Source: a virus
Lineage: Duplodnaviria > Heunggongvirae > Uroviricota > Caudoviricetes
IMG/VR virus record: IMGVR_UViG_2718218402_000003
Direction: 5' to 3' (one strand)
Length of the DNA stretch: 33,125 nt
Positions within the stretch are counted from its first letter, which is position 1. Every line of letters starts with the position of its first letter. Positions 7,490 to 31,787 of the stretch are shown one piece after another. The notes under the pieces were generated by a model. It was given only the letters and a program-made list of their open reading frames with translations. It did no database searches and had not been told where the DNA came from. The translations under genes and the position numbers were made by a program.

Positions 7490-7679
7490 AGCCTCACCTC
7501 CGCAGATAACGGATGGTGTACACGGTTTGGTTCGAAGAAGGAAAGAAGTTACATTAGCGTAAGGCCCGAACATCTATTCAAAAAGAAAAACGCCAGCAAT
7601 TATTCTGGCGTAGCTAAAAATATCGTATAATCTTACACTTCAAAAAATAACTTTATAAAATGCCATCACATCATATCTT

Positions 7680-13338: not shown

Positions 13339-13728
13339 TTACCTCCAGAGGCGTTGCTGGAATGTACGGGACGGACGCGGTGGGCGTTCGGAGTAAGGCA
13401 ATCTGACTGAGATTATCCAGTGACGGTAGTCGAGGCTAAGGGCTTTTTTAACCTCGTATCCGCGCCTGCGGTAACACTGAATTATCCATTCAGCCTGCTC
13501 TTCAGTGCATGGTGGATGCTGGAACCAGTCCGATTTGAATGCATGAAAACGCCGTCCGCACCTGCTGGCAAAGACGGCAGAATCATCAGAATTGTGTAAT
13601 TTGGTATCGTGCGCCATCGGTTGTCTCTGCTGGCGCAGCAGGTGCCAGTTGTTCAGGCTGGCGTATAAAGTATAAATAAACTGGTTCCAGTGTAAAGCCC
13701 CTACATTAATGGAATAAAAGTCAAACAA
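13339..13728 (-). CDS. Hypothetical phage protein (Cys/His-containing)
   Basis: 129-aa ORF tightly coupled to ydfU; true start may be the internal Met. Confidence 0.35.
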   Translation of the reverse strand: MFDFYSINVGALHWNQFIYTLYASLNNWHLLRQQRQPMAHDTKLHNSDDSAVFASRCGRRFHAFKSDWFQHPPCTEEQAEWIIQCYRRRGYEVKKALSLDYRHWIISVRLPYSERPPRPSRTFQQRLWR

Positions 13729-13980
13729 CAGATTGTTGGGATAAACACAACGCTTATTATTAAAAGCGATTAGATAAATTAAATTTTAATGTTATGCAAT
13801 TTTACCAGATCACCATAACATCTCGTTTGAAACCACCAAAACAACAACCATATCAATATTGATTATGTTAAAGTGAGTAAATATGGAAAACAACAAATCT
13901 GCACATTACGCTCCTTTTTTATCTGTGATACTTTTTGTTTTATGCTGTGTGTGGGCATTATTTTTATAAAAATATTTACA

Positions 13981-14007
13981 GATAAAATAAACCCGCCGAA
14001 GCGGGTT
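13981..14007 (-). terminator. Hairpin downstream of hokD (terminator / 3' fold-back element)
   Basis: AACCCGC-CGAA-GCGGGTT followed on the minus strand by a T-rich run; a second hairpin GCGAGGGA-tttct-CCCTCGC lies at about 14049-14069. Confidence 0.5.
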
Positions 14008-14075
14008 AAGTGCGGGTGCATTGAGGATGCCTGACACATCAGAGGTGGCGAGGGATTTCTCCCTCGCCTGGTCTC

Positions 14076-14231
14076 TTACTCCTCAGGTTCGTAAGCTGTG
14101 AAGACAGCGACCTCCGTCTGGCCGGTTCGGATTCGTACCTCGCAGAGGTCTTTCCTCGTTACCAGTGCCGTCACTATGACGGTTAAACAGATGACGATCA
14201 GGGCGATTAACATCGCCTTTTGCTGCTTCAT
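14076..14231 (-). CDS. hokD: Hok/Gef-family type I toxin (HokD/RelF-like)
   Basis: 51 aa MKQQKAMLIALIVICLTVIVTALVTRKDLCEVRIRTGQTEVAVFTAYEPEE; AAGGAGAAG Shine-Dalgarno before ATG 14231; the track ORF extends upstream in frame. Confidence 0.85.
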   Translation of the reverse strand: MKQQKAMLIALIVICLTVIVTALVTRKDLCEVRIRTGQTEVAVFTAYEPEE

Positions 14232-14906
14232 AGCCTGCTTCTCCTTGCCTTTCGGCACGTAAGAGGCTAACCTAGATTTGCCGTTCATAGATTGAGCCTC
14301 AGATTAATGTTAAGCGTCTTGCAGGACGCGTAATGTTAACTGGGGCTTTTCTCTATCTGCCGTTGGTGTTCATGCCTGAGACAGATAGCCTCAAGCACCC
14401 GCAGCCATTCTACTTAACTCCCGTCACCTCGCCAATATGAAATCAGTCAGAAAGGCGATCCATAAGAACAACAGCAAGGCAATAAATTGCCATTACAGCA
14501 GCAATAGCCAGCGCACATTTGAGAACCAGCACCACAACCTCCTGTATTGGACGTACACCAGTCCTGATAAATATGAGGCTGTCTCGTCAGTGATTCAATA
14601 CAACTATTGGGTATAGTTTCTGTGATTTTGTTCTGTAGAAATGGAACACAACAACCAGTCACCACCAGCACTTCTTTAAATACGCCAAGTCCGACGCAAG
14701 CTAACCTTCTAGGCCGCTTTGAGCGAAGAGCGGACGCTCGCATCTGTCCCAACACACTGAGGGCTTCACGAACACCTAGGTGTACTCGTCAACTGGGAAA
14801 AAGTCAGATTATCTGTAAGCGTACAGCCTGAACCGTCTGGTCAGAATCTGACGAATTAGACAAAGTGGTGTCCACCAAATAAGTAGTGGGAACCAAAGTA
14901 TCAGAT

Positions 14907-15287
14907 ATGCAGAAAAATGTGACTCCCGGCAGGCGAAAAGGCTGCCCTAATTATCCTCCCGAATTTAAACAGCAGCTCGTTGCTGCCTCCTGTGAACCCG
15001 GGATATCCATCTCAAAACTTGCTCTTGAAAATGGCATTAACGCCAATCTGTTGTTCAAATGGCGACAACAATGGCGCGAGGGAAAGCTGCTATTACCTTC
15101 TTCAGAGAGCCCCCAGCTACTTCCTGTGACTCTCGATGCAGCTGCCGAACAGCCAGAATCGCTCGCAGAGGACCCGGAAACCCTCAGTATCAGCTGTGAG
15201 GTAACGTTCCGGCACGGGACGCTCCGCTTCAATGGCAATGTCAGCGAAAAGCTCCTGACTCTGCTGATACAGGAACTGAAGCGATGA
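14907..15287 (+). CDS. IS66-family TnpA (orf1)
   Basis: ATG at 14907 (MQKNVTPGRRKG...); the track start at 14886 is a GTG. Confidence 0.8.
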   Translation: MQKNVTPGRRKGCPNYPPEFKQQLVAASCEPGISISKLALENGINANLLFKWRQQWREGKLLLPSSESPQLLPVTLDAAAEQPESLAEDPETLSISCEVTFRHGTLRFNGNVSEKLLTLLIQELKR

Positions 15288-15631
15288 TCCCGTTACCTTC
15301 CGGGACCAAAATTTGGCTGGTTGCCGGTATCACCGATATGAGAAATGGCTTCAACGGCCTGGCTGCGAAAGTACAAACGGCGCTGAAAGACGATCCCATG
15401 TCCGGCCATGTTTTCATTTTCCGGGGCCGCAGCGGCAGTCAGGTTAAACTGCTGTGGTCCACCGGTGACGGACTGTGCCTCCTGACCAAACGGCTGGAGC
15501 GTGGGCGCTTCGCCTGGCCGTCAGCCCGTGATGGCAAAGTGTTCCTTACGCAGGCGCAGCTGGCGATGCTGCTGGAAGGTATCGACTGGCGACAGCCTAA
15601 GCGGCTGCTGACCTCCCTGACCATGCTGTAA
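15284..15631 (+). CDS. IS66-family TnpB (orf2)
   Basis: 115 aa, overlapping tnpA stop; characteristic IS66 orf2. Confidence 0.85.
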
Positions 15632-15680
15632 ATCTCTTTATCCTGGTTGTCACAGAATAAGCCCGGTAAAATACGGGCTT

Positions 15681-17219
15681 ATGAACGACATCTCTTCTGA
15701 CGACATCTTCCTGCTGAAACAGCGCCTGGCCGAACAGGAAGCGCTGATCCACGCCCTGCAGGAAAAGCTGAGCAACCGGGAGCGCGAAATAGACCATCTG
15801 CAGGCGCAGCTGGATAAACTCCGCCGGATGAACTTCGGCAGTCGTTCCGAAAAAGTCTCCCGCCGTATCGCACAAATGGAAGCCGATCTGAACCGGCTTC
15901 AGAAAGAGAGCGATACGCTGACTGGTAGGGTGTATGACCCGGCAGTACAGCGTCCGTTGCGTCAGACCCGCACCCGTAAGCCGTTCCCTGAATCACTACC
16001 CCGTGACGAAAAGCGACTGTTGCCTGCGGCGCCGTGCTGCCCGAACTGCGGCGGTTCACTGAGCTATCTGGGCGAGGATACCGCCGAACAGCTGGAGTTG
16101 ATGCGTAGCGCCTTCCGGGTTATCCGGACGGTACGGGAAAAACATGCCTGTACTCAGTGCGATGCCATCGTGCAGGCACCTGCACCTTCGCGGCCCATCG
16201 AGCGGAGTATCGCCGGACCGGGGCTGCTGGCCCGCGTGCTGACCTCGAAGTATGCAGAGCACACCCCGCTGTATCGCCAGTCAGAAATATACGGCCGGCA
16301 AGGTGTGGAGCTGAGGCGTTCACTGCTGTCGGGCTGGGTGGATGCATGCTGCCGGCTGCTGTCTCCGCTGGAAGAGGCGCTTCATGGCTATGTCATGACT
16401 GACGGCAAACTCCATGCCGATGATACCCCGGTCCAGGTACTGCTGCCGGGTAATAAGAAGACGAAGACCGGGCGGTTGTGGGCGTATGTTCGTGATGACC
16501 GCAATGCAGGGTCAGCGTTGGCACCTGCAGTGTGGTTCGCTTACAGCCCGGACAGAAAAGGCATCCATCCGCAGACTCATCTTGCCTGCTTCAGCGGTGT
16601 GCTGCAAGCGGATGCGTACGCCGGGTTCAACGAGCTGTATCGCAATGGTGGGATAACGGAAGCTGCCTGCTGGGCTCATGCCCGCCGAAAGATCCACGAT
16701 GTGCACGTCCGCATCCCGTCAGCACTGACGGAAGAAGCCCTGGAGCAGATCGGTCAGTTGTACGCCATAGAGGCGGATATAAGGGGAATGCCGGCAGAGC
16801 AGCGGCTTGCTGAACGTCAGCGAAAAACGAAACCGTTGTTGAAATCCCTGGAAAGCTGGTTGCGTGAAAAGATGAAGACCCTGTCGCGACACTCAGAGTT
16901 GGCGAAGGCGTTCGCGTACGCACTTAACCAGTGGCCGGCACTGACGTACTATGCGAACGATGGCTGGGTGGAAATCGACAACAACATCGCTGAAAATGCC
17001 CTGCGGGCGGTCAGTCTGGGTCGTAAAAACTTCCTGTTCTTCGGCTCTGACCATGGTGGTGAGCGGGGAGCGCTACTGTACAGCCTGATCGGGACGTGCA
17101 AACTGAATGACGTGGATCCAGAAAGCTACCTTCGCCATGTGCTTGGCGTCATAGCAGACTGGCCGGTCAACCGGGTCAGCGAACTGCTTCCGTGGCGCAT
17201 AGCACTGCCAGCTGAATAA
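15681..17219 (+). CDS. IS66-family transposase TnpC
   Basis: 512 aa with N-terminal leucine zipper, CxxC...CxxC zinc finger and DDE region. Confidence 0.9.
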
Positions 17220-17280
17220 CACATCCCCGTCAATACGGCCCTCGCTGTACGCTTACGATTATCTGCGTAAGTTTCAGCGT

Positions 17281-17308
17281 AAAAATTGGGCACTATAAAA
17301 GTGCCCAA
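17281..17308 (-). terminator. Rho-independent terminator of the large NTPase gene
   Basis: TTGGGCAC-tataaaa-GTGCCCAA hairpin followed on the minus strand by TTTTT; 22 nt downstream of the stop at 17330. Confidence 0.55.
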
Positions 17309-17329
17309 ACTGTAGAAAAATACATAATG

Positions 17330-20300
17330 CTATGTATCTGAGCCAAACATAGAGCGCCGCCTTGTTATTTTATAATAAGTGGGATTTTCATTATCCACCT
17401 CAAAATCAGAGAAGAAGTGGTTATCTCTTAATGCTGTTAATAAACTTTGATTAGTTGAATCAACTTCAATTTTAGGTTTGCCTCGCCCCAAAATTTTACT
17501 GAACTCCGATAAACCAAGCAGATCAAGATACTCTTTGCAAGTCGTCTTACTCAAATCCTTACCCGGCAACAAAGCGATTAGCAGTGCTATTTTATTCTGC
17601 ATATTCAGTCCCTCTGCGACAAACAGGTTTTTTAGTAACGGTTCAGAAACATCATTAGGACTTGCTATCAATGCTGATATATCCTGTATTGCTCGACTCA
17701 AGATGAGCGACTGAGTAGAGGTTCCCCAAGTTTTATAAGATGACGTCAAGATTAGAAGTTCATCTGGTTTAAAATTATTTTCTAAAATATAGTCATTAAC
17801 GACCTGAGAGTAATTCTTACTATAAATAGCCAACGGAGTTTTAACAAACTCGAGTAGCTTAACTTTCAAATCATCATCAACTTTCCAAGAAAGTATTGAT
17901 ATAGCCTCATCCAAAATAAAGTTATCAATCGTCATTAATTCAACGTATGCCCTGATATTCTTATGAATATAATAGGAAAGTTGCTCTGAATAGTTATCTC
18001 GTATGAAATTAAGTGGCGCAACATTCATACGAATAATATTTTTATCCACTAATATTTTGAACTTATCACTCGCGATATTACTAGCGCTAAAGGATGTTTT
18101 ACAAATAATATTTAGTGAGCAAATTAATTTTTCATATTTATCATTTGATAAATCATTACAGATAACAATCGATTTAAATAATTTACCTTTAAGCTCGTTA
18201 TCAATATTAATATTTTGAAAATTCAGGTCTACATCAGTTCTATTGATAAATTCGATAAGTGAGTCATCCAGTCCATCAACATGTTCAAAATAAGAGACAA
18301 TATTTTCCTCAGAGCACACTGCTCTATCTTTATCCAACAAAGATGACCATAAAGATTCGCTCTCAACCTCACTCAGAGATGTCACGAAAGTTTGCAAAGC
18401 GTTTATATACTGGCCTTTTTGTTCATCAGATATTCCCTCATTATTAAGAACGGATAAAACAATGGATTCATCATCCACGATTGAACCATCACAACTAGAT
18501 AAAACCATATCCAGATAGTCCCTAATATGGTTATTAACATAACTAGCCAAGGGAGAATCAGGTTGTGACATCACTAGTGTATAGTTCTTATGGCGAATAT
18601 CATCTTCACTATTAAGCGTGTAAACCTTACTCAGCATTAAGGTCAGGTTGGAAAAATTAATATCATAAAGTGAATGCTGGTAAACCGCATCAAAGAGTAC
18701 TTTATTTGCGTTTTCAAATTTAATACTGACAAAAGAAACGTTAAGCAACTTAAAACCACTAATTAATTTGTCAACCTTCGGTTCTGATATTGCTAAATAA
18801 CCTGCCGAATCAGAGATGTAATCAGTCAGACAATCATCAATATTAATGGCCTCGATGGCGTCATTGGCAGAATAATAAAACGTGCCTATAGAGTAGAGTT
18901 TAACCCAATCAGCAGAAAATTCACTCTCTGTCAGCGCATAAGAAAAAAACTCAGGCCACTGTGTATTTAATCGATTAATGAAGACAGGCTGAGCCCTCTC
19001 AGTTTCAAAGTAACCACGAATAAACTCAACTCTTCTATCTTTTCTTAGTTGTTTGAATAAACGTTTTATTAAGTTTACCTGGGCTGGCGTTTGAAGCAGA
19101 TAAGCTAATAAATCAAAATTAAGCGCCTCTTCCTGTTCAAAATCCACTTCTCGAAGGCGGGCAACGACCAGCTTGGGGTTCTTGAGTTGATAAGTGAACT
19201 CTTTGCCTTTTTGATCGGTAATGCTGCGTAAAAACATCTTATCAATTCGACTCAGGCTATTTTCATAAAAATAGGTCATATAGTCGGTATAGGTTTCATC
19301 AATATAACCATCACGAATAAGGTATTTAAGCAAGTCAAAATACTCACTGCTTTTTATTTCATTAAAGTCTCTTTCCTCTCCAATTTCATTGGTATAGGTG
19401 AGTTTAAATATTTCATCAATGTTTTCTCTAGTTATTACTTCTTTAAGTCTTTTGTTTCTAGAATCAACCAAACTTTCTCTTGATCTTGATATAAGCTCAT
19501 TAATTTCTTCTATTTTACCATTAAATTTATTTTCAACACTTTCTTTTCTAGCCGCCCTTCTCTTTGCTATATCAGCTTTCTCAGCCTGATTATAGTGAGG
19601 ATGATTATTATATCTAGATAATTCCTTATCGTATATAGCATCAACCTCCTGACTAGAGTTGAGTATTTCATCATTGATTGCCTCAATCTCTTTTTTTCTA
19701 TCTCTAATATCTTTTTCTATTTTCTTTATTTCTTCAATAATAAGGTTGTCTTTTTCACTAAATATGGTATAAACCATACCTTGATTAAGTTGCAACTCAC
19801 TAAAATCTCTTGGGAAAATATTCTTATAGGCAATAATGGCCAACATTTTATTACAGTCAAGTTCTGTCGTGTTTAATTTGTTATAATAAATTTGAAATTC
19901 GTTATAAATATTCTTCAATATTCTCATATCATCAATATATAAAGACATCCCTTGTAGAAATCTTTCATTGAACAACTTGAGAATACCACCACCATCAAAA
20001 TGTGTGATAAACTGATCGTAAGAGTTAGAACTATCAACAACAGGAATAACTGGAATGATATAATCAAAGAATTTGGTTCTATCCTTCGAAATGAAGATAT
20101 CATCACGAAGCAAGTAAATAAAACGTAACGTCGATTTCTTGTGCCCTGCTGTGTCCCGTTGAATATTAACCAGTCTGTTAACCTCATGAAGACGTTCAAA
20201 GATGTTATTACTATTAAAACGGTCCATGTCTTCAAAAACAATGGCATCAGCATCAACGTTCTCGAAAAGGTACAATACTTCATTTAAATATCTATCGAAA

Positions 20301-20962
20301 TAAGACTCGTTACTTTCTTCAAAAATCTCTATTTCATTACCCTGTAAATTTATTTTCTTAAGAACATTACGATTCTTTTGGGTTTTTATTAACTTGTAAA
20401 TGAAAATACAAGATAGGATAGTACATATAAACCCACTAATTAAAAGCGTATCGTATTTAGTTGATAATGTAAGTAGTGTCTTTATATTACCTTCAGATAA
20501 AAGTGAAACAAACTTTTCCCACTTATTAAATAGCGTGATATGTAGTATCATAGCGATAAATAACACCGTAAAGATGGTGTTTATCACAATGTTGTTAGTT
20601 TTTATTTTTTTCTTTACTTTAAAATGTGTCTGGGGAATATCATCAGCATTAATTTGGTGAATTAACTGGTTAAGAACTTTACCTTCTAACGCGGTTTCAT
20701 TTATATCTTTACTTGGTTCATTAGTTTCAGCTTCCTCAATCGATCTGAAATGAGCAAGTGAGATATGAACAAACTTTATATTTGAATGACTTTTCTTATA
20801 GGATTCGATAAGACTACTTTTTCCTGCGCTATATTGCCCTGATATCGCAACATTTTTTAGATCGTTATTGGCAAAAACAAAATCTATCGCATTTTTATAT
20901 ACACCCAGCTCAACATCGCTGAACGGCGTTAACTTTTGAAATTTATAGCTATCATCACTCAT
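17330..20962 (-). CDS. Large (1210 aa) membrane-inserted P-loop NTPase, KAP/YobI-like; candidate stand-alone phage-defence or abortive-infection protein
   Basis: Walker A GQYSAGKS (aa 42-49, nt about 20816-20839), two predicted TM helices (aa about 125-145 and 172-192) between Walker A and Walker B IVFEDMD (aa 241-247); coiled-coil-like segment aa about 400-500; about 950 aa of unassigned C-terminal sequence; strongly AT-rich by eye; SD GGAAGGGA upstream; own terminator. CDS is certain, function is inferred. Confidence 0.6.
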   Translation of the reverse strand: MSDDSYKFQKLTPFSDVELGVYKNAIDFVFANNDLKNVAISGQYSAGKSSLIESYKKSHSNIKFVHISLAHFRSIEEAETNEPSKDINETALEGKVLNQLIHQINADDIPQTHFKVKKKIKTNNIVINTIFTVLFIAMILHITLFNKWEKFVSLLSEGNIKTLLTLSTKYDTLLISGFICTILSCIFIYKLIKTQKNRNVLKKINLQGNEIEIFEESNESYFDRYLNEVLYLFENVDADAIVFEDMDRFNSNNIFERLHEVNRLVNIQRDTAGHKKSTLRFIYLLRDDIFISKDRTKFFDYIIPVIPVVDSSNSYDQFITHFDGGGILKLFNERFLQGMSLYIDDMRILKNIYNEFQIYYNKLNTTELDCNKMLAIIAYKNIFPRDFSELQLNQGMVYTIFSEKDNLIIEEIKKIEKDIRDRKKEIEAINDEILNSSQEVDAIYDKELSRYNNHPHYNQAEKADIAKRRAARKESVENKFNGKIEEINELISRSRESLVDSRNKRLKEVITRENIDEIFKLTYTNEIGEERDFNEIKSSEYFDLLKYLIRDGYIDETYTDYMTYFYENSLSRIDKMFLRSITDQKGKEFTYQLKNPKLVVARLREVDFEQEEALNFDLLAYLLQTPAQVNLIKRLFKQLRKDRRVEFIRGYFETERAQPVFINRLNTQWPEFFSYALTESEFSADWVKLYSIGTFYYSANDAIEAINIDDCLTDYISDSAGYLAISEPKVDKLISGFKLLNVSFVSIKFENANKVLFDAVYQHSLYDINFSNLTLMLSKVYTLNSEDDIRHKNYTLVMSQPDSPLASYVNNHIRDYLDMVLSSCDGSIVDDESIVLSVLNNEGISDEQKGQYINALQTFVTSLSEVESESLWSSLLDKDRAVCSEENIVSYFEHVDGLDDSLIEFINRTDVDLNFQNINIDNELKGKLFKSIVICNDLSNDKYEKLICSLNIICKTSFSASNIASDKFKILVDKNIIRMNVAPLNFIRDNYSEQLSYYIHKNIRAYVELMTIDNFILDEAISILSWKVDDDLKVKLLEFVKTPLAIYSKNYSQVVNDYILENNFKPDELLILTSSYKTWGTSTQSLILSRAIQDISALIASPNDVSEPLLKNLFVAEGLNMQNKIALLIALLPGKDLSKTTCKEYLDLLGLSEFSKILGRGKPKIEVDSTNQSLLTALRDNHFFSDFEVDNENPTYYKITRRRSMFGSDT

Positions 20963-21361
20963 TGATATCCCTTCCCAATCTTCACCGAGAGAGCTGGCTT
21001 TCGGAGTTAATCAAACAAAATCATGCAGATAAAATTTCGCCTTATTATAGCAGACACAACTGCAAAGATTAGCTAAAGCCTCGTTGTTTTCTTCATCTAT
21101 CCCTATAATTTTACACTACAGTTAGCACTTACTATACCTGAAAGCTTTGCTCGTAAAGAGCACAATCGCAAGTCAGCAAAGCACGACTTTGCAATCGAGC
21201 GCCGCTAAAACAGTGCTGAATCGCTACGACTTAGGCAGCCATCTTATCGGTTGGCAGATAATTTCTAACTTCCGCTTCTGGCACAAAGCGGACAACCACG
21301 ATAGCTCTATCCTGTGCCACAAAATGTCAATTCACATCTTAACTAATGCATTTTAATCTCG

Positions 21362-21824: not shown

Positions 21825-22814
21825 TTACCCCCTGAAGCCCGGCGGAATTTCGGTATCCGGCTCAGAAATATGATTCACACAACGCTGTACAGACGAACGC
21901 CCCAGGCGGATAACCAGTTCATCCCATTTTTCGCGAAGCTTTGACGGACTCATGATATTTTTTACCCAGAATGGATCCCGCTGCACCCGACCAAACATTT
22001 CACAAATTTGTCTGTGAGTTCTGCCATCCAGCATCCGCATTGTGCGCACGTCGTTGGCCCATGCGGTCCAGTTGGGTTCTTTCGGTCGCGAAATCTCGCC
22101 ATCATCGCTGGCGGCCTGCTCGTAAAGACTCACGATTCGCCCCCAGATCCACTGCGCACACGCCAAATCTTCCTGGCTGCCCCACTGGCGTTTTTTCGCA
22201 CTGAACACAACCGCGTCAGGGTGTCGGGTTAAAAAATCCTGTTCAACCGTCTGCGGGTCCGGTTGCGAAGCTTCCGGACGAGAAGTCTTTTTATTCTCTG
22301 TAGTAATCTCTGTTGTATTCTCTGTAGTAATCTCTGTTGTATTCTCTGTAAGATCATCAGGCCATTTTGACCCGATGACATTGAGTCGTTTTGAACCAAT
22401 GGAGCGTTTCATTTTGACCTCTTCCATCGTGTCATTTTGACCTGATGGAGCGGCGCATTTTAAACCGATGGATTCGCTCAATTTGCCACCATCTAAAAGC
22501 TCGCTCCCGTAGTTGATCGTGTAGAAATTGGTCATATCGCGCTTTGATTTATTGAGCTTTTCACAACGCAAAAGCCCCAGCGTTTTCAGACTTGCAAACG
22601 CGCGCTTTAACGTTGACTCTGACCAGAATGGGAACTGTTCCAGCCATTGTTCCGTTGTGTTATAAATCCAGCGAACACCATCACATTCCATGCCGGAGTT
22701 GGTATCTCTCAACCAGTAGTGCAGTTGTTGCAAAACAATGGCTTCGTTTAAGCCAATTTTCATTGCCAGCTGCGTGTTTATAACCAGTGGGCGTTCAGCA
22801 AAAAGAAGACTCAT
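21825..22814 (-). CDS. Phage replication initiation protein (replisome-organiser-like) with internal ori iterons
   Basis: HTH-like N-terminal domain (LAMKIGLNEAIVLQQLHYWL); tandem DNA repeats inside the ORF; position downstream of cro-like and cII-position genes. Start taken at the internal ATG 22814 to avoid overlapping the YdaT-like gene. Confidence 0.5.
   Translation of the reverse strand: MSLLFAERPLVINTQLAMKIGLNEAIVLQQLHYWLRDTNSGMECDGVRWIYNTTEQWLEQFPFWSESTLKRAFASLKTLGLLRCEKLNKSKRDMTNFYTINYGSELLDGGKLSESIGLKCAAPSGQNDTMEEVKMKRSIGSKRLNVIGSKWPDDLTENTTEITTENTTEITTENKKTSRPEASQPDPQTVEQDFLTRHPDAVVFSAKKRQWGSQEDLACAQWIWGRIVSLYEQAASDDGEISRPKEPNWTAWANDVRTMRMLDGRTHRQICEMFGRVQRDPFWVKNIMSPSKLREKWDELVIRLGRSSVQRCVNHISEPDTEIPPGFRG
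22293..22494. repeat. Iteron-like direct-repeat array (candidate origin of replication) within the replication gene
   Basis: 2.4 copies of the 24-bp unit ATTCTCTGTAGTAATCTCTGTTGT (22293-22351), then about 6 degenerate CATTTTGACC-N-GATGG-like repeats at roughly 23-24-bp spacing (22363-22494). Confidence 0.6.
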
Positions 22815-23316
22815 AATTCCATCCAGCTTTTTGTTGGTATTGCTGTCGATACGCAAGCTTGAAAGCAATTGCTTTTTCTATAAGTTCGTCAGTTTCACGA
22901 TCTACAACGGCAGGATCTGCAAAAAGCAGTCCGGATTCCACCACATCGCCATATTCTTTATTTAACCCGGCGATCATGTACGTAATACTTTTTCCATCAC
23001 TGATCTCACGATACAACCTGAAATCACTAATCCGGATAGCCTCCATAATCGCAGGCACTAGCGCCGTGAACTTTTCACGCTTATCCCTGGTGTCGATAGC
23101 CTTCCAGCGTTCGAATATCTTCACTCGATTAACGCCAAGCGCTCGCTGATCAACCGCGCCACCTTCATCTGTGACACGCTGAACATCGATGTTCGGGCGC
23201 TCTTTCAAAGCCCAGAATGCTTCAGTGATTAATATCGTCGCCTGCTCCTGTGTCATTCCTGGTCGACATATCCAGGCATCCAGAGCCTCACGAGCCTGTT
23301 CAGGAGTGATTTTCAT
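22795..23316 (-). CDS. YdaT-like protein (cII-position gene of Rac/Qin-type prophages)
   Basis: 173-aa ORF directly downstream of the cro-like dicC; pattern resembles Rac YdaT as recalled. Confidence 0.5.
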   Translation of the reverse strand: MKITPEQAREALDAWICRPGMTQEQATILITEAFWALKERPNIDVQRVTDEGGAVDQRALGVNRVKIFERWKAIDTRDKREKFTALVPAIMEAIRISDFRLYREISDGKSITYMIAGLNKEYGDVVESGLLFADPAVVDRETDELIEKAIAFKLAYRQQYQQKAGWNYESSFC

Positions 23317-23530
23317 TGTTCAACCGCCCCGCCCGCTTCGTCTTACGATATTCATCATAAACTTTGGGATCATACTGAAGCTCCCCGCCAGATGCCTCCT
23401 GTAGACGCATCGCGCGACCTTCGGGAACTAAATCCCCTTTCCAGCTATAAAGCGAAGCCAAACGAATACCTGCTGCTTGTGCAAGTTTTGTTTTTGAACC
23501 GAAATACAAAAGAGCGTCAGTTTTAAGCAT
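23300..23530 (-). CDS. dicC: Cro-like repressor DicC
   Basis: 76 aa MLKTDALLYFGSKTKLAQAAGI...; divergent from dicA. Confidence 0.85.
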   Translation of the reverse strand: MLKTDALLYFGSKTKLAQAAGIRLASLYSWKGDLVPEGRAMRLQEASGGELQYDPKVYDEYRKTKRAGRLNNENHS

Positions 23531-23544
23531 TTAAAACACCTTTA

Positions 23545-23564
23545 TTGTTAGTCATGACTAACAA
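23545..23564. promoter_or_regulatory. Perfect 20-bp palindrome TTGTTAGTCATGACTAACAA in the dicC-dicA divergent region (candidate operator)
   Basis: Exact dyad symmetry read from sequence; a related TTAGC-N4-GCTAA element lies at 23598-23611. Confidence 0.5.
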
Positions 23565-23613
23565 AATAGATGTTAACAAAAACATAGTCAATACGATTTA
23601 GCATTAGCTAACT

Positions 23614-24021
23614 ATGGAAACAAAAAATTTAACTATCGGCGAACGCATTAGGTATCGTCGGAAAAACCTCAAACACACCCAAAGGTCTCTTGCTAAAGCC
23701 CTGAAAATCTCCCATGTGTCTGTATCACAATGGGAACGGGATGATAGTGAACCTACAGGGAAGAACCTTTTTGCCCTCAGCAAAGTATTGCAATGCTCAC
23801 CAACATGGATTCTATTTGGCGATGAAGACAAGCAACCAACACCACCTGTTGAGAAGCCAGTTGCCTTATCCCCCAAAGAACTAGAGCTCCTTGAGCTGTT
23901 TAATGCACTGCCAGAATCAGAACAGGATACCCAGCTCGCCGAAATGCGAGCTCGAGTAAAAAACTTCAATAAACTCTTTGAAGAATTACTAAAAGCCCGT
24001 CAGCGGACAAATAAAAGATAA
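23614..24021 (+). CDS. dicA: cI-like immunity repressor DicA (XRE-family HTH)
   Basis: 135 aa METKNLTIGERIRYRRKNLKHTQRSLAKALKISHVSVSQWER...; matches DicA as recalled. Confidence 0.9.
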   Translation: METKNLTIGERIRYRRKNLKHTQRSLAKALKISHVSVSQWERDDSEPTGKNLFALSKVLQCSPTWILFGDEDKQPTPPVEKPVALSPKELELLELFNALPESEQDTQLAEMRARVKNFNKLFEELLKARQRTNKR

Positions 24022-24093
24022 CATCATCAATGAGTTATCTTTTACCACATCAATCATGTTAGCAATAACATACAAAATCACTTGACCTATATG

Positions 24094-24107
24094 TTAGCCA
24101 TGGCTAA
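24094..24107. promoter_or_regulatory. Palindrome TTAGCCATGGCTAA upstream of ydfA (candidate DicA operator at the dicB-operon promoter)
   Basis: Same TTAG-CATG-CTAA architecture as the core of the 23545 palindrome; imperfect dyad ATGTTA-N4-TAACAT at 24056-24071. Confidence 0.4.
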
Positions 24108-24187
24108 TCTTATTTGCATCAACACACCGCACGGTGTTCTCAGCAAACAGTTCCGCTACCCCGGCGTTAAGGGGAAATGAGGTCAAC

Positions 24188-24343
24188 ATGGATACTATCG
24201 ATCTTGGCAACAGCGAATCTCTGGTATGTGGCGTGTTCCCCAACCAGGACGGTACGTTCACCGCGATGACGTATACCAAAAGCAAAACGTTTAAAACCGA
24301 ATCTGGAGCGCGTCGCTGGCTGGAAAGAAATTCAGGTGGGTGA
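24188..24343 (+). CDS. ydfA: YdfA-like small protein (DUF1391)
   Basis: 51 aa MDTIDLGNSESLVCGVFPNQDG...; ATG at 24188 inside the track ORF. Confidence 0.7.
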   Translation: MDTIDLGNSESLVCGVFPNQDGTFTAMTYTKSKTFKTESGARRWLERNSGG

Positions 24344-24344
24344 T

Positions 24345-24473
24345 ATGGATTTCGACACAATCATGGAAAAGGCTTACGAAGAATACTTCGAAGGTCTTGC
24401 CGAAGGCGAAGAAGCTCTCAGCTTCAGCGAATTTAAACAGGCACTTTCCAGTTCGGCAAAATCTAACGGCTGA
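24345..24473 (+). CDS. ydfB: YdfB-like small protein (42 aa)
   Basis: Hand translation: MDFDTIMEKAYEEYFEGLAEGEEALSFSEFKQALSSSAKSNG; below the track length cutoff. Confidence 0.6.
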   Translation: MDFDTIMEKAYEEYFEGLAEGEEALSFSEFKQALSSSAKSNG

Positions 24474-24502
24474 TAAGCGAAACAGCACCGCGAGGAATCA
24501 GT

Positions 24503-24721
24503 ATGCAGAAACGAGAACCCGTCATCATCGCGCCAGACTATACCGATGATGAACTTTATGAGTGGATGCGCCAGAAAATTAATGCAGCGCAGGATCTGAA
24601 ATGGGCCAATGAAGCCAGGGCTAAGCAGGCTGAAAATCTGTCCGCTCTGGAGCAGGATATCACTAATCTGGAAAAAGCAGCGACATTAAGCATTGCCAGA
24701 ATGATTACATACCCGCGTTAA
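24503..24721 (+). CDS. ydfC: YdfC-like protein
   Basis: 72-aa ORF in the conserved position before dicF. Confidence 0.7.
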   Translation: MQKREPVIIAPDYTDDELYEWMRQKINAAQDLKWANEARAKQAENLSALEQDITNLEKAATLSIARMITYPR

Positions 24722-25061
24722 TAGCTAACCAACGAAGCTAAGGTTGGTAATTAAGGAGTTCTCCACGGATGAGGTGGAGTGCGTGCGCCGGACACGGGTG
24801 AGCATCCGGCACTGACAGTTTACTGAAAGGATATTTCCCTGAAAAGTCAGACCATAACGCGAAAGCGCACGGCGAGGTAGCTGGTTCATAGATAGCCTGT
24901 CGTTAAATTTTCGTCGACCGTGCGCTTCCGGTTGTGGCAATCCGCGAAATGGCGCGGCGGTAAGTATGGCGGGGTTATTCCTTCCCCGTTGAGGACACCG
25001 GGTTGTCAGGTTGACCATACGCTTAAGTGACAACCCCGCTGCAACGCCCTCTGTTATCAAT

Positions 25062-25124
25062 TTTCTGGTGACGTTTGGCGGTATCAGTTTTACTCCGTGA
25101 CTGCTCTGCCGCCCTTTTTAAAGT
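25062..25124 (+). ncRNA. dicF: DicF small regulatory RNA (ftsZ-targeting) with intrinsic terminator
   Basis: TTTCTGGTGACGTTTGGCGGTATCAGTTTTACTCCGTGACTGCTCTGCCGCCC followed by TTTTT; matches DicF as recalled; between ydfC and dicB. Confidence 0.8.
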
Positions 25125-25288
25125 GAATTTTGTGATGCGGTGAATGCGGCTGAGCGCACGCGGAACAGTTAAAACCAAAAACAGTGTTATGGGTGGATTC
25201 TCTGTATCCGGCGTTAATTGTTAACTGGTTAACGTCACCTGGAGGCACCAGGCACTGCATCACAAAATTCATTGTTGAGGACGCGATA

Positions 25289-25477
25289 ATGAAAACGTTA
25301 TTACCAAACGTTAATACGTCTGAAGGTTGTTTTGAAATTGGTGTCACTATCAGTAACCCAGTATTTACTGAAGATGCCATTAACAAGAGAAAACAAGAAC
25401 GGGAGCTATTAAATAAAATATGCATTGTTTCAATGCTGGCTCGTTTACGTCTGATGCCAAAAGGATGTGCACAATGA
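25289..25477 (+). CDS. dicB: Cell-division inhibitor DicB
   Basis: 62 aa MKTLLPNVNTSEGCFEIGVTISNPVF...; ATG at 25289 within the track ORF. Confidence 0.85.
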   Translation: MKTLLPNVNTSEGCFEIGVTISNPVFTEDAINKRKQERELLNKICIVSMLARLRLMPKGCAQ

Positions 25478-25665
25478 ATTCAGCATTTGTGCTTGTTCTG
25501 ACAGTTTTTCTTGTTTCCGGAGAGCCAGTTGATATTGCAGTCAGTGTTCACAGGACAATGCAGTAGTGTATGACTGCAGCAACCGAACAGAAAATTCCCG
25601 GTAACTGTTACCCGGTCGATAAAGTTATTCACCAGGATAATATCGAAATCCCGGCAGGTCTTTAA
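25474..25665 (+). pseudogene. ydfD: ydfD-like lysis gene with in-frame TAG at codon 31
   Basis: MNSAFVLVLTVFLVSGEPVDIAVSVHRTMQ-TAG(25564-25566)-CMTAATEQKIPGNCYPVDKVIHQDNIEIPAGL; overlaps the dicB stop (ATGA). Confidence 0.55.
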
Positions 25666-27116
25666 AACAGTTCCGTAATAAATATCCGGTTTCATTCTTA
25701 TATGCCAGCAATGGCAGGGATTTGTTCATCCTTAAATCTGTCATGAGGTTAAAACAAATGAGTAAAGTCTTTATTTGCGCCGCTATTCCTGACGAACTGG
25801 CAACAAGGGAAGAAGGCGCTGTGGCTGTAGCCACAGCCATTGAAGCTGGCGACGAACGCCGTGCTCGAGCAAAATTTCACTGGCAATTCCTGGAACATTA
25901 TCCGGCTGCTCAGGACTGCGCTTATAAATTTATTGTCTGCGAGGATAAACCTGGCATACCCCGCCCTGCCCTCGATTCATGGGATGCTGAATATATGCAG
26001 GAAAACCGCTGGGATGAGGAGTCTGCTTCTTTTGTCCCGGTTGAGACTGAATCCGATCCGATGAACGTCACTTTTGACAAGCTGGCCCCTGAAGTACAGA
26101 ACGCTGTCATGGTTAAGTTCGACACATGTGAAAAAATCACCGTTGATATGGTTATTAGCGCACAGGAATTGTTGCAGGAAGACATGGCAACATTCGACGG
26201 ACATATCGTTGAAGCGTTGATGAAAATGCCAGAAGTTAACGCCATGTATCCGGAGCTTAAGTTGCACGCCATTGGGTGGGTTAAGCATAAATGTATTCCT
26301 GGTGCTAAATGGCCCGAAATTCAGGCAGAGATGCGCATCTGGAAAAAACGTCGCGAAGGTGAACGCAAGGAAACCGGAAAATACACGTCTGTTGTTGATC
26401 TCGCCCGCGCCAGAGCCAATCAACAGTACACTGAAAATTCAACAGGAAAAATCAGCCCGGTCATTGCTGCCATTCATCGCGAATACAAGCAGACATGGAA
26501 AACACTGGATGACGAACTGGCCTACGCTCTCTGGCCTGGTGATGTGGATGCTGGAAACATTGACGGCAGCATCCATCGCTGGGCAAAAAAAGAAGTTATC
26601 GACAACGACCGCGAAGACTGGAAGCGTATCTCGGCATCAATGCGCAAACAGCCTGATGCCCTTCGCTACGACCGCCAAACTATTTTTGGCCTTGTCCGTG
26701 AGCGTCCGATCGACATTCACAAAGATCCCGTAGCACTGAACAAATATATCTGCGAATACCTGACGACAAAGGGCGTGTTTGAGAATGAAGAAACAGACCT
26801 GAGCACTGTTGATGTTCTCCAGTCATCAGAAACACAAACTGATGCAGTGGAAACTGAGGTATCTGATATCCCAAAAAATGAAACCGCGCCGGAAGCTGAA
26901 CCATCTGTAGAGCGTGAGGGGCCGTTCTATTTCCTCTTCGCAGATAAGGACGGAGAAAAATACGGTCGCGCAAACAAACTTTCTGGTCTGGATAAGGCAC
27001 TGGCTGCTGGCGCCACTGAAATCACAAAAGAAGAATATTTTGCCCGAAAAAATGGCACATACTGAACCGCCCCGGGAATCCTGGAGACTAAACTCCCTGA
27101 GAAAGAGGTAAACAGG

Positions 27117-27443
27117 ATGACTAAAAATACACGTTTTTCCCCCGAGGTCCGTCAACGGGCAGTTCGTATGGTTCTGGAAAGTCAGGGCGAATATGACTCA
27201 CAATGGGCGGCAATTTGTTCCATTGCCCCAAAGATTGGCTGTACGCCAGAGACTCTGCGAGTGTGGGTTCGTCAGCATGAACGGGATACCAGGAGTGGTG
27301 ATAGTGGACTCACCACCGCTGAACGTCAGCGTCTGAAAGAGCTGGAACGTGAAAATCGTGAACTGCGCCGCAGTAACGATATCCTTCGCCAGGCTTCCGC
27401 TTATTTTGCGAAGGCGGAGTTCGACCGCCTCTGGAAAAAATAA
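27117..27443 (+). CDS. IS629-like OrfA
   Basis: 108 aa [22 protein letters not shown]... Confidence 0.85.
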
Positions 27444-28330
27444 TGCCACTGCTGGATAAGCTGCGTGAGCAGTACGGGGTCGGACCGGTATGCAGTGAAC
27501 TGCATATTGCCCCGTCAACGTATTACCACTGTCAGCAACAGCGACATCATCCTGATAAACGTAGTGCCCGTGCGCAGCGCGATGACTGGCTGAAGAGAGA
27601 GATACAGCGCGTATACGATGAAAATCATCAGGTGTACGGTGTGCGTAAAGTCTGGCGCCAGTTGTTACGCGAAGGTATCAGGGTGGCCAGATGTACAGTG
27701 GCGCGCCTCATGGCGGTTATGGGACTTGCCGGTGTTCTCCGGGGTAAAAAGGTCCGTACTACCGTCAGCCGGAAAGCCGTTTCCGCAGGCGACCGCGTAA
27801 ACCGTCAGTTCGTGGCAGAACGTCCTGACCAGCTGTGGGTGGCTGATTTTACTTACGTCAGCACATGGCAGGGCTTCGTCTATGTGGCGTTCATCATTGA
27901 TGTGTTTGCCGGATGCATCGTGGGGTGGCGAGTCTCATCGTCTATGGAAACGACATTCGTGCTGGATGCACTGGAGCAGGCGTTGTGGGCCCGTCGGCCG
28001 TCCGGCACAGTCCATCACAGTGATAAAGGTTCTCAGTATGTATCACTGGCCTATACGGAGCGACTAAAAGAAGCAAAACTGCTGGCATCAACAGGGAGTA
28101 CAGGTGACTCGTATGACAACGCGATGGCGGAGAGCATCAATGGTCTTTACAAAGCGGAGGTAATACACCGTAAGAGCTGGAAAAACCGTGCAGAAGTGGA
28201 ACTGGCCACACTCACGTGGGTGGACTGGTATAACAATCGACGATTGCTGGGAAGGCTGGGTCATATCCCTCCGGCAGAAGCAGAAAAAGCTTATTATGCT
28301 TCCATCAGAAACGATGATCTGGCAGCCTGA
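27443..28330 (+). CDS. IS629-like OrfB transposase (DDE)
   Basis: 295 aa in the -1 frame relative to orfA (TAATG overlap). Confidence 0.9.
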   Translation: MPLLDKLREQYGVGPVCSELHIAPSTYYHCQQQRHHPDKRSARAQRDDWLKREIQRVYDENHQVYGVRKVWRQLLREGIRVARCTVARLMAVMGLAGVLRGKKVRTTVSRKAVSAGDRVNRQFVAERPDQLWVADFTYVSTWQGFVYVAFIIDVFAGCIVGWRVSSSMETTFVLDALEQALWARRPSGTVHHSDKGSQYVSLAYTERLKEAKLLASTGSTGDSYDNAMAESINGLYKAEVIHRKSWKNRAEVELATLTWVDWYNNRRLLGRLGHIPPAEAEKAYYASIRNDDLAA

Positions 28331-29614
28331 GTTCACAGATAAAACACTCTCCAGGAAAACCGGGGCGGTTCATACACGGGCTTACCGCAAAATGTAGATA
28401 CCGCTGAAGATTCAGAACAACCAGAGCCGATAAAAGTTACCGCTGACGAAGTAAACAAAATTATGCAGGCAGCCAATATCAGCCAGCCTGACGCCGATAA
28501 GTTGCTTGCTGCATCACGTGGTGAATTTGTTGAAGGGATTAGTGACCCGAATGATCCGAAATGGGTTAAGGGGATCCAGACCCGCGATTCTGTGAACCAG
28601 AACCAGCATGAATCGGAACGGAACTACCAAAAAGCGGAACAAAACAGTCCAAATGCGTTACAAAACGAGCCAGAAACGAAACAGCCTGAACCAGTGGCGC
28701 AACAGGAAGTGGAAAAAGTCTGCACCGCCTGCGGTCAGACCGGCGGCGGCAACTGCCCTGATTGTGGCGCGGTGATGGGCGACGCAACATACCAAGAAAC
28801 ATTCGATGAAGAGTATCAGGTTGAAGTTCAGGAAGATGATCCGGAGGAAATGGAAGGCGCTGAACATCCACACAAGGAGAACACTGGCGGCAATCAGCAT
28901 CACAATAGCGATAATGAAACTGGCGAGACGGCAGATCACCCAATTAAGGTGAACGGTCATCACGAAATCACATCCACCAGCAGGACGTGTGACCATCTAA
29001 TGATCGACCTTGAAACCATGGGAAAAAATCCTGATGCCCCGATCATCTCAATAGGTGCAATATTTTTCGATCCGCAAACCGGAGATATGGGACCGGAATT
29101 TAGTAAGACTATCGATCTGGAAACTGCTGGCGGAGTCATTGATCGGGACACCATTAAATGGTGGCTTAAGCAATCACGCGAAGCGCAATCTGCCATTATG
29201 ACCGATGAAATCCCGTTAGATGATGCACTGTTACAATTGCGGGAATTTATCGACGAAAACTCCGGTAAATTTTTTGTTCAGGTTTGGGGAAATGGAGCCA
29301 ACTTCGACAACACGATTTTGCGCCGTTCATACGAACGGCAGGGGATCCCCTGCCCGTGGCGTTACTACAACGATCGCGATGTACGCACAATCGTTGAGCT
29401 GGGGAAAGCCATAGACTTCGATGCCAGAACGGCTATTCCATTCGAAGGTGAGCGCCATAATGCACTTGATGACGCCCGTTACCAGGCAAAATACGTTTCA
29501 GTTATCTGGCAAAAACTGATCCCGAGTCAGGCTGATTCTTAATGTTCAACTGTCGCCGGTTGTGACTGGTATTCTGCAACCGGCGCTCGTCTGATGTAAG
29601 AGATAAAGAAATCG

Positions 29615-29905
29615 ATGAGCGAAGTAATCATGATTGTCTCTCCCGGCAAATGGGTATCCGAAGAGCAGTTAATTGCGCTGAAAGGAATAAAAAAAGGTAC
29701 GTTAAAAAAGGCCCGGGAAAAATCGTTTATGGAAGGAAGGGAATATAAGCATGTCGCTCATGACGGTATGCCATGGGATAACAGTCCATGCTTTTACAAC
29801 CTGGAAGAAATTGATCGCTGGATTGAGCGCCAGGCATCAGCGAGACCAAGAGTAACCGGCTCATTTAAACCGTCTGGTCTGTTTCCTCCGGCTCTACAAA
29901 AATAA
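29615..29905 (+). CDS. Excisionase-like protein (putative Xis)
   Basis: 96-aa ORF between the exonuclease and int; assignment by position and size only; its 3' end abuts an IS remnant. Confidence 0.4.
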   Translation: MSEVIMIVSPGKWVSEEQLIALKGIKKGTLKKAREKSFMEGREYKHVAHDGMPWDNSPCFYNLEEIDRWIERQASARPRVTGSFKPSGLFPPALQK

Positions 29906-30582
29906 TGTCCATCATTTTTAATGGACACTATCGTATGAAACACCGGACCTGGATCACTGAAGCTTTACGTCTTCACTTTGAAGAACATTTACCCCGGGTT
30001 GTGGCCGGGCGTCGCCTGGGTGTACCAAAATCAACAGTTTGTAGTATGTTCGTGCGCTTTCGGAGAGCTGGCCTTTCGTGGCCTTTGCCCGCAGGCATGT
30101 CGGAGCAGGAACTTGATGCCTGCCTTTACGGACAATTTTCCACGGTACCAGTCGTACGTCCTGAAAGCACCGTTATATCCGAAGCCCCCGTGGTAAAAAA
30201 ACGTCCCCGGCGGCCCAACTTCCCTTATGAGTTTAAAATCGCCTTAGTGGAGCAGTCACTGCAGCCCGGAGCCTGTGTGGCGCAGATCGCCCGGGAAAAC
30301 GGAATCAACGATAACCTGCTCTTCAACTGGCGCCATCAATACCGGAAAGGTGGCCTGCTGCCTTCCGGAAAAAATATGCCGGCACTGCTTCCCGTGACGT
30401 TAACGCCGGAGCCGGATAATAAAATCCCGGCCCCCGCACAGGAACCAGAGCAGATAAATACACCGTCCGACAGTCTGTGTTGTGAGCTGATTCTGCCGGC
30501 CGGAACTCTCAGGCTTAAAGGTAAACTGACGCCGGCGTTATTACAGACACTTATCCGCGAAATGAAAGGGAGCAGCCACTGA
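29905..30582 (+). CDS. Chimeric ORF: unidentified HTH-like N-terminus fused to an IS66-family TnpA homologue
   Basis: C-terminal part (from about aa 95: [20 protein letters not shown]...[16 protein letters not shown]...) parallels TnpA at 14907-15287; N-terminal part ([11 protein letters not shown]...) does not. Confidence 0.45.
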
Positions 30583-31787
30583 TGATATCTCTCCCTGCCG
30601 GTTCTCTGGGATGTGATGTGTCAGAGCAACTGGAGCTTATCAGCAGCGCCTTTAAGGTTATCGAAACACAACGTCCGAAACTGGCCTGTTGCCGGTGCGA
30701 CCATATCGTGCAGGCACCGGTGCCTTCAAAACCCATTGCACGCAGTTATGCCGGAGCGGGGCTCCTGGCCCATGTCGTCACCGGAAAATATGCAGACCAT
30801 CTGCCGTTATACCGCCAGTCAGAGATATACCGCCGTCAGGGTGTGGAGCTGAGCCGTGCCACACTGGGGCGCTGGACTGGTGCCGTTGCTGAACTACTGG
30901 AGCCGCTGTATGACGTCCTGCGCCAGTATGTGCTGATGCCCGGTAAAGTCCATGCTGATGATATCCCCGTCCCGGTCCAGGAGCCGGGCAGCGGTAAAAC
31001 CCGGACAGCCCGGCTGTGGGTCTACGTCCGTGATGACCGTAACGCCGGTTCACAGATGCCCCCGGCGGTCTGGTTCGCGTACAGTCCGGACCGGAAAGGT
31101 ATCCATCCACAAAATCACCTGGCCGGTTACAGCGGTGTGCTTCAGGCCGATGCTTACGGTGGTTACCGGGCGTTATACGAATCCGGCAGAATAACGGAAG
31201 CCGCGTGTATGGCTCATGCCCGGAGAAAAATCCACGATGTGCATGCAAGAGCGCCCACCGACATCACCACGGAAGCCCTGCAGCGTATCGGTGAACTGTA
31301 TGCCATCGAGGCAGAGGTCCGGGGCTGTTCAGCAGAACAGCGTCTGGCGGCAAGAAAAACCAGAGCCGCGCCACTGATGCAGTCACTGTATGACTGGATA
31401 CAGCAACAGATGAAAACACTGTCGCGTCACTCAGATACGGCAAAAGCGTTCGCATACCTGCTGAAACAGTGGGATGCACTGAACGTGTACTGCAGTAATG
31501 GCTGGGTGGAAATCGACAACAACATCGCAGAGAACGCCTTACGGGGAGTGGCCGTAGGCCGGAAAAACTGGATGTTCGCGGGTTCCGACAGCGGTGGTGA
31601 ACATGCGGCGGTGTTGTACTCGCTGATCGGCACATGCCGTCTGAACAATGTGGAGCCAGAAAAGTGGCTGCGCTACGTCATTGAACATATCCAGGACTGG
31701 CCGGCAAACCGGGTACGCGATCTGTTGCCCTGGAAAGTTGATCTGAGCTCTCAGTAAATATCAATACGGTTCTGACGAGCCGCTTAC
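30140..31787 (+). mobile_element. Defective IS66-family element (internal deletion; left end degenerate)
   Basis: Right IR ...CAATACGGTTCTGACGAGCCGCTTAC ending 31787; left-IR-like sequence only partially recognisable around 30136-30170; tnpB and the 5' third of tnpC are absent. Left boundary is approximate. Confidence 0.55.
30582..31757 (+). CDS. N-terminally truncated IS66-family transposase (tnpB-start/tnpC fusion)
   Basis: 391 aa; MISLPAGS resembles the TnpB start MIPLPSGT; from [16 protein letters not shown] it aligns to TnpC residues about 128-512 of the intact copy. Confidence 0.8.

Follow-up and report, generated by a model that had tools for sequence, protein, structure and literature searches.

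What does this stretch of virus-derived DNA hold around its dicB gene: a whole operon for the inhibition of cell division, or part of one? The DNA is IMG/VR record IMGVR_UViG_2718218402_000003, of 33,125 nucleotides (nt), and is called the window over its full length below. The segment at positions 24188 to 25477 begins exactly at the ydfA start codon (ATG) and ends exactly with the dicB stop codon. In a reading made from the sequence alone, hereafter the sequence-only reading, this segment had been described as a complete dicB operon with the DicF small RNA (sRNA) and the DicB division inhibitor. The analysis presented here indicates that the locus is very probably the DicA-repressed early-left (PL-type) dicBF operon carried by a decayed, Qin-like lambdoid prophage in an Escherichia coli or Shigella chromosome. 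The dicBF element is already known, widespread and well studied in E. coli. The present copy is mildly notable only for a rare amber allele of ydfD and for the way in which losses surround a perfectly conserved core of dicF and dicB.

Alignment of the locus with the Qin prophage of K-12

Positions 23037 to 26524 of the window align by BLAST with the Qin prophage of E. coli K-12 MG1655 (NC_000913, positions 1647357 to 1650844) over 3,488 nt, with 98.57% identity, 50 mismatches, and no gaps; the K-12 annotation was carried onto the window by a constant offset (K-12 locus coordinates + 5679). The genes ydfA-ydfB-ydfC-dicF-dicB-ydfD-ydfE lie on a single strand downstream of the divergent dicC and dicA genes, collinear with K-12, and dicF and dicB each occur once in the window. 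The experimentally defined operon is ydfABC-dicF-dicB-ydfDE (PMC10448788). The divergence from K-12 is mosaic: it reaches 4 to 6% over the dicBp region, ydfA, and ydfB (24037 to 24536) and falls to 0 to 0.4% from dicF on, which suggests recombination between prophage variants. Over the 996 bases from 25139 to 26134, the sole difference from K-12 is the nonsense change in ydfD that is described below.

The gap-free alignment, together with the Rfam and Pfam matches, bears out the sequence-only reading in that ydfA, ydfB, ydfC, DicF with its terminator, and dicB are all present and intact. Neither the DicF seed nor the dicB start codon contains any difference from K-12; these were the two places where divergence had been named beforehand as speaking against the identification. 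The DicB protein matches Pfam PF05358 over its full length (positions 1 to 62 of 62; 136.8 bits versus a cut-off of 27) and is identical to K-12 DicB at 62 of 62 residues, and the GAGGA ribosome-binding site in front of its ATG is likewise unchanged. The exact DicB and YdfA proteins are each present on at least 1,000 contigs. In PHROGs, YdfA, YdfB, YdfC, and DicB are matched as phage protein families of unknown function. As had been pointed out, the 42-residue ydfB is missing from the list of open reading frames (ORFs), where it appears only as a 45-residue ORF with a GTG start (24336 to 24473).

Three minus-strand ORFs (24725 to 25060 and 25090 to 25425, 111 residues each, and 24094 to 24360, 88 residues) overlie the spacers, dicB, and ydfA; they have no Pfam or PHROG match and were treated as chance ORFs.

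DicF, its terminator, and the processing stems

The dicF gene is matched by the Rfam DicF covariance model (RF00039) at positions 25063 to 25114, over model positions 1 to 52 of 52, with 76.7 bits (gathering score, 48) and E = 1.9e-15 in a search of the whole window. The predicted fold consists of a 15-nt single-stranded 5' end followed by the terminator, i.e., a hairpin at 25077 to 25113 and the UUUUU tract at 25115 to 25119 (-15.9 kcal/mol), and the minimum-free-energy and centroid folds agree. The pairing regions of DicF have been defined, and its pairing with ftsZ was confirmed by compensatory mutations (PMC5069750). Both regions, namely the 5' end for xylR and pykA and the 3' part for ftsZ, are the same as in the K-12 RNA.

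In K-12, RNase III cuts the transcript at 813/814 to give a 190-nt DicF, and the dependence on RNase III has been shown (PMC10448788). The 5' end of this precursor maps to approximately 24925 to 24930 of the window, at the upstream RNA stem, which is located in the structured, 340-nt spacer between ydfC and dicF. An RNase III-made 72-nt DicF has also been reported (PMC5069750), and the duplex in the dicF-dicB spacer is likely to be the RNase III substrate that would give its 3' end. The segment from 25115 to 25292 folds with -65.5 kcal/mol (z = -4.95), and none of 200 shuffled sequences folds as well. Two single-nucleotide polymorphisms (SNPs) fall inside the stems (U to C at 24870, and 25138), and each turns a G.U pair into a G-C pair. 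Compared with K-12, where the cleavage itself was shown, the window conserves the stems at the cleavage positions.

The dicF-dicB spacer also gives a match of 35.5 bits to the Rfam family STnc100, below the threshold of 47, and membership is not claimed. As a weaker possibility, the spacer may be a distant relative of the STnc100/PasD prophage sRNAs, with a role beyond that of an RNase III site.

Table 1. Features of the dicBF locus and adjoining genes, in window coordinates
Feature	Position	Strand	Description
dicC	23300-23530	-	Cro-like regulator, 76 aa (amino acids); 231/231 nt identical to K-12 b1569; Pfam P22_Cro, E = 1.7e-11
Oc operator	23545-23564		TTGTTAGTCATGACTAACAA; perfect 20-bp palindrome between dicC and dicA
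dicA	23614-24021	+	135 aa, CI-like repressor of dicBp; differs from K-12 by 3 nt and 1 aa (G43D, site 23741); Pfam HTH_3, E = 9.8e-16
dicBp region	24056-24110	+	Predicted; -35 TTGACC (24082-24087), -10 TAATCT (24105-24110), 17-nt spacing
ydfA	24188-24343	+	51 aa, DUF1391; 14 nt and 4 aa differ from K-12; Pfam DUF1391, 96.9 bits
ydfB	24345-24473	+	42 aa; protein identical to K-12 YdfB, 4 synonymous nt changes; PHROG 2061, E = 1.3e-27
ydfC	24503-24721	+	72 aa; A61T relative to K-12; PHROG 1744, E = 2.7e-39
Upstream RNA stem	24860-24930	+	Inverted repeat 24860-24872/24918-24930, 13 nt, 92% complementary; belongs to a long helix of the predicted structure
dicF	25062-25114 (to 25119 with the terminator U tract)	+	53 nt; 53/53 identical to K-12 b1574
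dicF-dicB spacer duplex	25124-25271	+	Arms 25124-25142/25253-25271, 19 nt, 95% complementary
dicB	25289-25477	+	Division inhibitor, 62 aa; 189/189 nt identical to K-12 b1575
ydfD pseudogene	25474-25665	+	Lysis protein; G to T at 25564, GAG to TAG, amber E31*
Terminator-like hairpin	25703-25716	+	Pattern scan; after ydfD
Exonuclease gene, 5' part	25758-27065	+	435 codons; PHROG 2082 "exonuclease," positions 1-435 of 823
IS3-family element	27063-28372	+	1,310 bp; 25-nt terminal inverted repeats; ORFs 27117-27443 and 27443-28330
Exonuclease gene, 3' part	28417-29542	+	94.3% identity to the PE164 gene; Pfam Rv2179c-like 3'-5' exonuclease domain, E = 4.2e-68

Regulators, operators, and the dicBp region

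DicA with putative operators at dicBp and at Oc is retained, on the evidence of the alignment, as in a Qin-type operon. In vivo binding of DicA has been shown for the Oc operator of K-12 (TTGTTAGTCATAACTAACAA; PMC3441716), which has one asymmetric base, whereas Oc in the window is fully palindromic. Two further Oc-like sites (24056 to 24075 and 24091 to 24110) flank or overlap dicBp, and both are also found in K-12. The hexamers of dicBp and their 17-nt spacing are unchanged relative to K-12. From these elements, we infer that TTGACC-N17-TAATCT is dicBp and that transcripts would start near 24112 to 24117, an assignment that is consistent with the RNase III cut at transcript position 813/814 giving the 190-nt DicF (PMC10448788). 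A generic promoter and terminator scan listed neither dicBp nor the DicF terminator because of its hexamer and loop-length rules, so that this result is not evidence of their absence.

The G43D replacement was considered as a change that disables the helix-turn-helix of DicA, and this was ruled out, as the exact protein is present on at least 1,000 contigs and D43 occurs in several distinct alleles. Since D43 is a common natural allele, DicA with this residue is presumably functional as a repressor.

In K-12, the repression that DicA exerts on dicBp is lifted by Rem, a protein of Qin (PMC10448788). The absence of rem from the window, given below with the other points against the identification, makes the Rem route to derepression unavailable from this stretch of DNA. 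On the other hand, the stationary-phase accumulation of DicF and the spontaneous activation of dicBp in approximately 1% of K-12 cells are both Rem independent (PMC10448788). By analogy, spontaneous switching based on DicA and DicC, as well as stress induction, would be possible remaining routes to derepression.

Distal genes of the operon

The description of the operon as complete holds for ydfA through dicB and fails for the two distal genes: ydfD carries the E31* change, and an insertion sequence (IS) interrupts the ydfE-type exonuclease gene. These broken cistrons do not decide membership in the Qin-type operon, because ydfE of K-12 is itself a pseudogene.

Lysis requires intact YdfD, with its N-terminal as well as its C-terminal domain (PMC8835842), and E31* should accordingly be a null allele or close to one. 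Two codons past the stop, at 25570, an in-frame ATG could give the C-terminal 31 residues and with them residual activity. The same allele is annotated in E. coli PE164 by the Prokaryotic Genome Annotation Pipeline as a pseudogene with an internal stop. A 61-mer containing the TAG codon was found in 24 of 3,494 matching records, i.e., complete E. coli genomes that have the segment (approximately 0.7%), and enteropathogenic E. coli (EPEC) E2348/69 is among these carriers. Owing to its rarity, the allele may be used as a lineage marker; studies of YdfD could also employ it as a naturally occurring loss-of-function control.

The spacer between ydfD and ydfE is identical to that of K-12, and by comparison with K-12 we infer that the terminator-like hairpin after ydfD fits the end of the 1,608-nt ydfABC-dicFB-ydfD transcript. 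Farther downstream, the homology to the PE164 exonuclease gene ends at 27063, and the TGA stop codon of the 5' ORF is formed by the first three bases of the IS3-family element. This element contains an ALIL frameshift pseudoknot at 27398 to 27514 (Rfam, 120.9 bits). The idea that ydfE is intact here, unlike that of K-12, was rejected, as both PE164 and PHROG 2082 show that the 435-residue ORF is the front half of an 823-residue gene. Exact-sequence look-ups of the truncated 435-residue exonuclease gave no match.

Prophage context

Gene content marks the surrounding element as a Qin-like lambdoid prophage in decay. Toward dicC, it contains a full-length CII/YdaT-like gene, a full-length O-like replication gene, a Ren-like gene, a gene for a 1,210-residue YobI-like P-loop NTPase, and an IS66-family element, as well as hokD/sok, ydfU, the gene for a Q antiterminator, and a lysis cassette (essQ-rrrQ-rzpQ) with cspI. 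The split exonuclease gene, xis, an IS66-type fragment, and int are found on the dicB side. The genes on both sides fit a prophage and support the reading of the locus as a dicBF operon. At least four IS-type elements were found in the window, which contains no virion genes past the lysis cassette.

In the place of the virion genes, positions 334 to 4823 hold a CP4-type block (DUF932, an antirestriction protein, and RadC-like, DUF5983, and DUF4942 proteins) that adjoins the lysis cassette. It includes a CbeA antitoxin (2631 to 2999) and a CbtA toxin (3089 to 3463). CbtA-family toxins also target FtsZ and MreB, and the window may therefore carry a third division inhibitor.

Other observations concern the dicC side. 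The cspI segment (5312 to 5728) encodes a protein identical to that of K-12 at 70 of 70 residues, has a cspA-type thermoregulator in its 5' untranslated region (Rfam, 110 bits), and adjoins the essQ-ydfR-rrrQ-rzpQ lysis cassette (5934 to 7573). Cargo fills the interval between this cassette and the Q gene (7680 to 11323), namely an AraC-family regulator gene (7680 to 8402), a 2-thiouracil desulfurase/DUF1722 (YbgA-like) gene (8800 to 9759), and two overlapping ORFs (10152 to 11323). At 14079 to 14400, hokD (51 of 51 residues identical to K-12) occurs with a full-length Rfam match to the sok antitoxin RNA (107 bits). The region from 13635 to 21000 contains the complete IS66-family element (14886 to 17219), a few hundred bases from hokD and at the place of relBE in K-12, and the YobI-like NTPase gene (17330 to 20962, minus strand), which could be defense-type cargo. 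On the dicB side, the excisionase gene (DUF1233, 29615 to 29905) and the integrase gene, which runs from 31830 to the window end and retains the N-terminal arm-binding domain, are separated by the IS66-type fragment (29905 to 31757); in K-12 Qin, intQ is truncated by IS2.

Distribution in E. coli

The 441-nt dicF-dicB segment is found with at least 80% query coverage in 3,913 of 5,426 complete E. coli genomes (approximately 72%), and the median genome has two matching places. This agrees with the report that many strains carry a dicBF locus and that some carry several copies (PMC5069750).

Proposed mechanism

The activities of all parts are transferred from experiments in K-12, and what the window itself provides is sequence identity and the retention of the cis elements. 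Processing of DicF by RNase III as well as by RNase E, repression by DicA, and spontaneous switching are established there (PMC10448788), and transient expression of dicBF confers approximately 100-fold resistance to lambda that depends on DicB (PMC6832061). In the present copy, DicA bound to the operator-like sites overlapping dicBp would hold the operon off, and DicC would be the Cro-like partner in a bistable switch. Firing of dicBp would produce one polycistronic RNA containing ydfA, ydfB, ydfC, the 340-nt spacer, dicF, the second structured spacer, dicB, and ydfD. RNase III would cut the long stems, and RNase E would then trim the 5' end to yield the 53-nt DicF, the 3' end of which would be made by its own intrinsic terminator, and readthrough of this terminator would give transcripts that carry dicB.

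The roles of the two effectors are assigned to this copy because their sequences are identical to the characterized K-12 molecules. DicF would pair with the translation-initiation region of ftsZ and thereby lower FtsZ synthesis, and would also act on the xylR, pykA, and manX mRNAs. DicB, given its identity to the K-12 protein, would bind MinC and take it to the septal ring, where FtsZ rings would be dismantled (PMC6832061). The expectation that derepression yields two independent inhibitors directed at FtsZ is thus upheld by the identity to the K-12 locus and by the K-12 literature (PMC10448788, PMC5069750, PMC6832061). It had further been stated that both inhibitors modulate phage sensitivity in K-12. 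This is correct for DicB, which also blocks the ManYZ-dependent entry of lambda DNA and on which the phenotype depends (PMC6832061), but the effect is not attributed to DicF. The strain could in principle make DicF and DicB, form filaments, and gain DicB-dependent resistance to lambda-type phages. Because ydfD is truncated, derepression should not trigger YdfD-mediated lysis. Beyond the correct annotation of the locus, the significance of these results is small.

Weighing of the alternatives

Several observations weigh against the identification of a working dicBF operon. The dicA-ydfA spacer contains eight SNPs relative to K-12, two of which are within the promoter-proximal operator-like site; one change in that site, T to C at 24098, makes its core symmetrical. 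The Qin antirepressor gene rem was not found in the window by tblastn with K-12 Rem (E <= 1e-3), and tblastn with K-12 RelB, RelE, YdfV, FlxA, and YdfT likewise finds none of these in the window. The host genes ftsZ, minC, zipA, manXYZ, and hfq are not contained in the window, and the targets are therefore assumed to resemble those of K-12. The predicted duplex between DicF and the K-12 ftsZ leader (-38.5 kcal/mol) covers the ribosome-binding site, but values as low were obtained with 33 of 500 shuffled versions of DicF, so that this test is not discriminating. Finally, the full-length variant of the spacer is less common, being covered to at least 80% in only 752 genomes. Nothing was found, however, that contradicts the identification of the locus as a dicBF operon.

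That the operon is a silent relic, locked off by DicA without a cognate inducer and carried passively without benefit to the host, is in our judgment unlikely. The lack of rem, a DicA without a RecA cleavage site, the heavy decay of the prophage with its several IS-type elements, the CP4-type segment where late genes are expected, the broken ydfD and exonuclease genes, and the loss of relBE and flxA from the window all agree with a relic; yet the ydfD nonsense change is all that distinguishes dicF, dicB, and the whole of 25139 to 26134 from K-12, the promoter, operators, and processing stems are kept, and K-12 accumulates DicF in stationary phase and switches dicBp on in a small fraction of its cells without Rem (PMC10448788). 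The near-identity to K-12 could also reflect recent shared ancestry rather than selection, which would again suit a relic. A different possibility, which we regard as doubtful but worth keeping in mind, is that the retained function is mainly superinfection exclusion by DicB, with dicF as a passenger and division inhibition as a side effect. The DicB dependence of lambda resistance in K-12 (PMC6832061), the position of the locus in the immunity region, and the inactivation of the lethal partner ydfD next to an untouched dicB all point in this direction; however, the K-12 phenotype needed induced expression, DicF is conserved as perfectly as dicB, and this proposal concerns the selective value of the operon rather than a different mechanism.

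It is highly improbable that the operon is the early-left operon of a complete, still-inducible temperate phage. The same operon does occur in the phage genomes PhiR42_1, Tritos, and mEp460, and the window has xis, int, an O-like replication gene, and a Q gene. However, head and tail genes are lacking past the lysis cassette, where the CP4-type block with CbeA and CbtA is found instead, ISs split the exonuclease gene and part xis from int, and none of the complete E. coli genomes in the collection has a single place that matches more than 72% of the window. The DicA-repressed dicBF operon of a decayed prophage stands as the preferred identification. More tentatively, and with the odds rather against it, this copy may have been caught in the course of domestication, in which the lethal ydfD and the inducer rem were lost and dicF, dicB, and all the cis elements for their expression and processing were kept; if so, the host would select a non-lytic module for division arrest and phage exclusion.

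Comparison with known systems

The closest characterized relative is the Qin prophage of K-12 (b1569 to b1577: dicC, dicA, ydfA, ydfB, ydfC, dicF, dicB, ydfD, and ydfE), which shares its gene order and spacing with the window without insertions or deletions over 3.5 kb. The dicC, dicF, and dicB genes are identical in both, and the hexamers, operator-like sites, terminator, and RNase III stems are kept. On the other hand, ydfD is intact in K-12, where the window has E31*, and the exonuclease gene of K-12 is cut earlier, by IS2 at the window-equivalent position 26523, whereas the window copy is cut at codon 435 by the IS3-family element. The window also differs in DicA G43D, in its perfectly palindromic Oc, and in a ydfA that has diverged by 9%. 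In place of rem, relBE, ydfV, and flxA of K-12, which were not found in the window, it contains the full-length O-like and CII/YdaT-like genes, the IS66-family element, and the YobI-like NTPase gene.

E. coli PE164 (NZ_CP114128) carries dicC, dicA, ydfA, ydfB, ydfC, dicB, and ydfD with the same internal stop, at 97.9% identity over window positions 22011 to 27063; its exonuclease gene is uninterrupted and encodes 823 residues, unlike the IS-split copy of the window. The ydfD allele is further shared with EPEC E2348/69, which carries the same 61-mer with the TAG codon. Among phages, PhiR42_1, Tritos, vB_EcoS-689R5, and mEp460 contain the dicBp-ydfABC-dicF-dicB-ydfD block at 95.6 to 97.9% identity, and in Tritos the block is annotated as DicF, DicB, and YdfD. 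These are phage genome records of 37 to 49 kb, whereas the element in the window is a decayed, IS-ridden prophage.

More distant in kind, lambda Kil is likewise a small protein from a repressor-controlled early-left operon that blocks the assembly of the FtsZ ring, and Rac KilR is another small phage-encoded FtsZ inhibitor of an early-left operon. Lambda Kil is described as ZipA dependent in one report (PMC3961180). The dicBF operon differs from both in that DicB, which matched only the Pfam DicB family, has no sequence relationship to Kil or KilR and acts through MinC, and in that an RNA inhibitor, DicF, is added to the protein.

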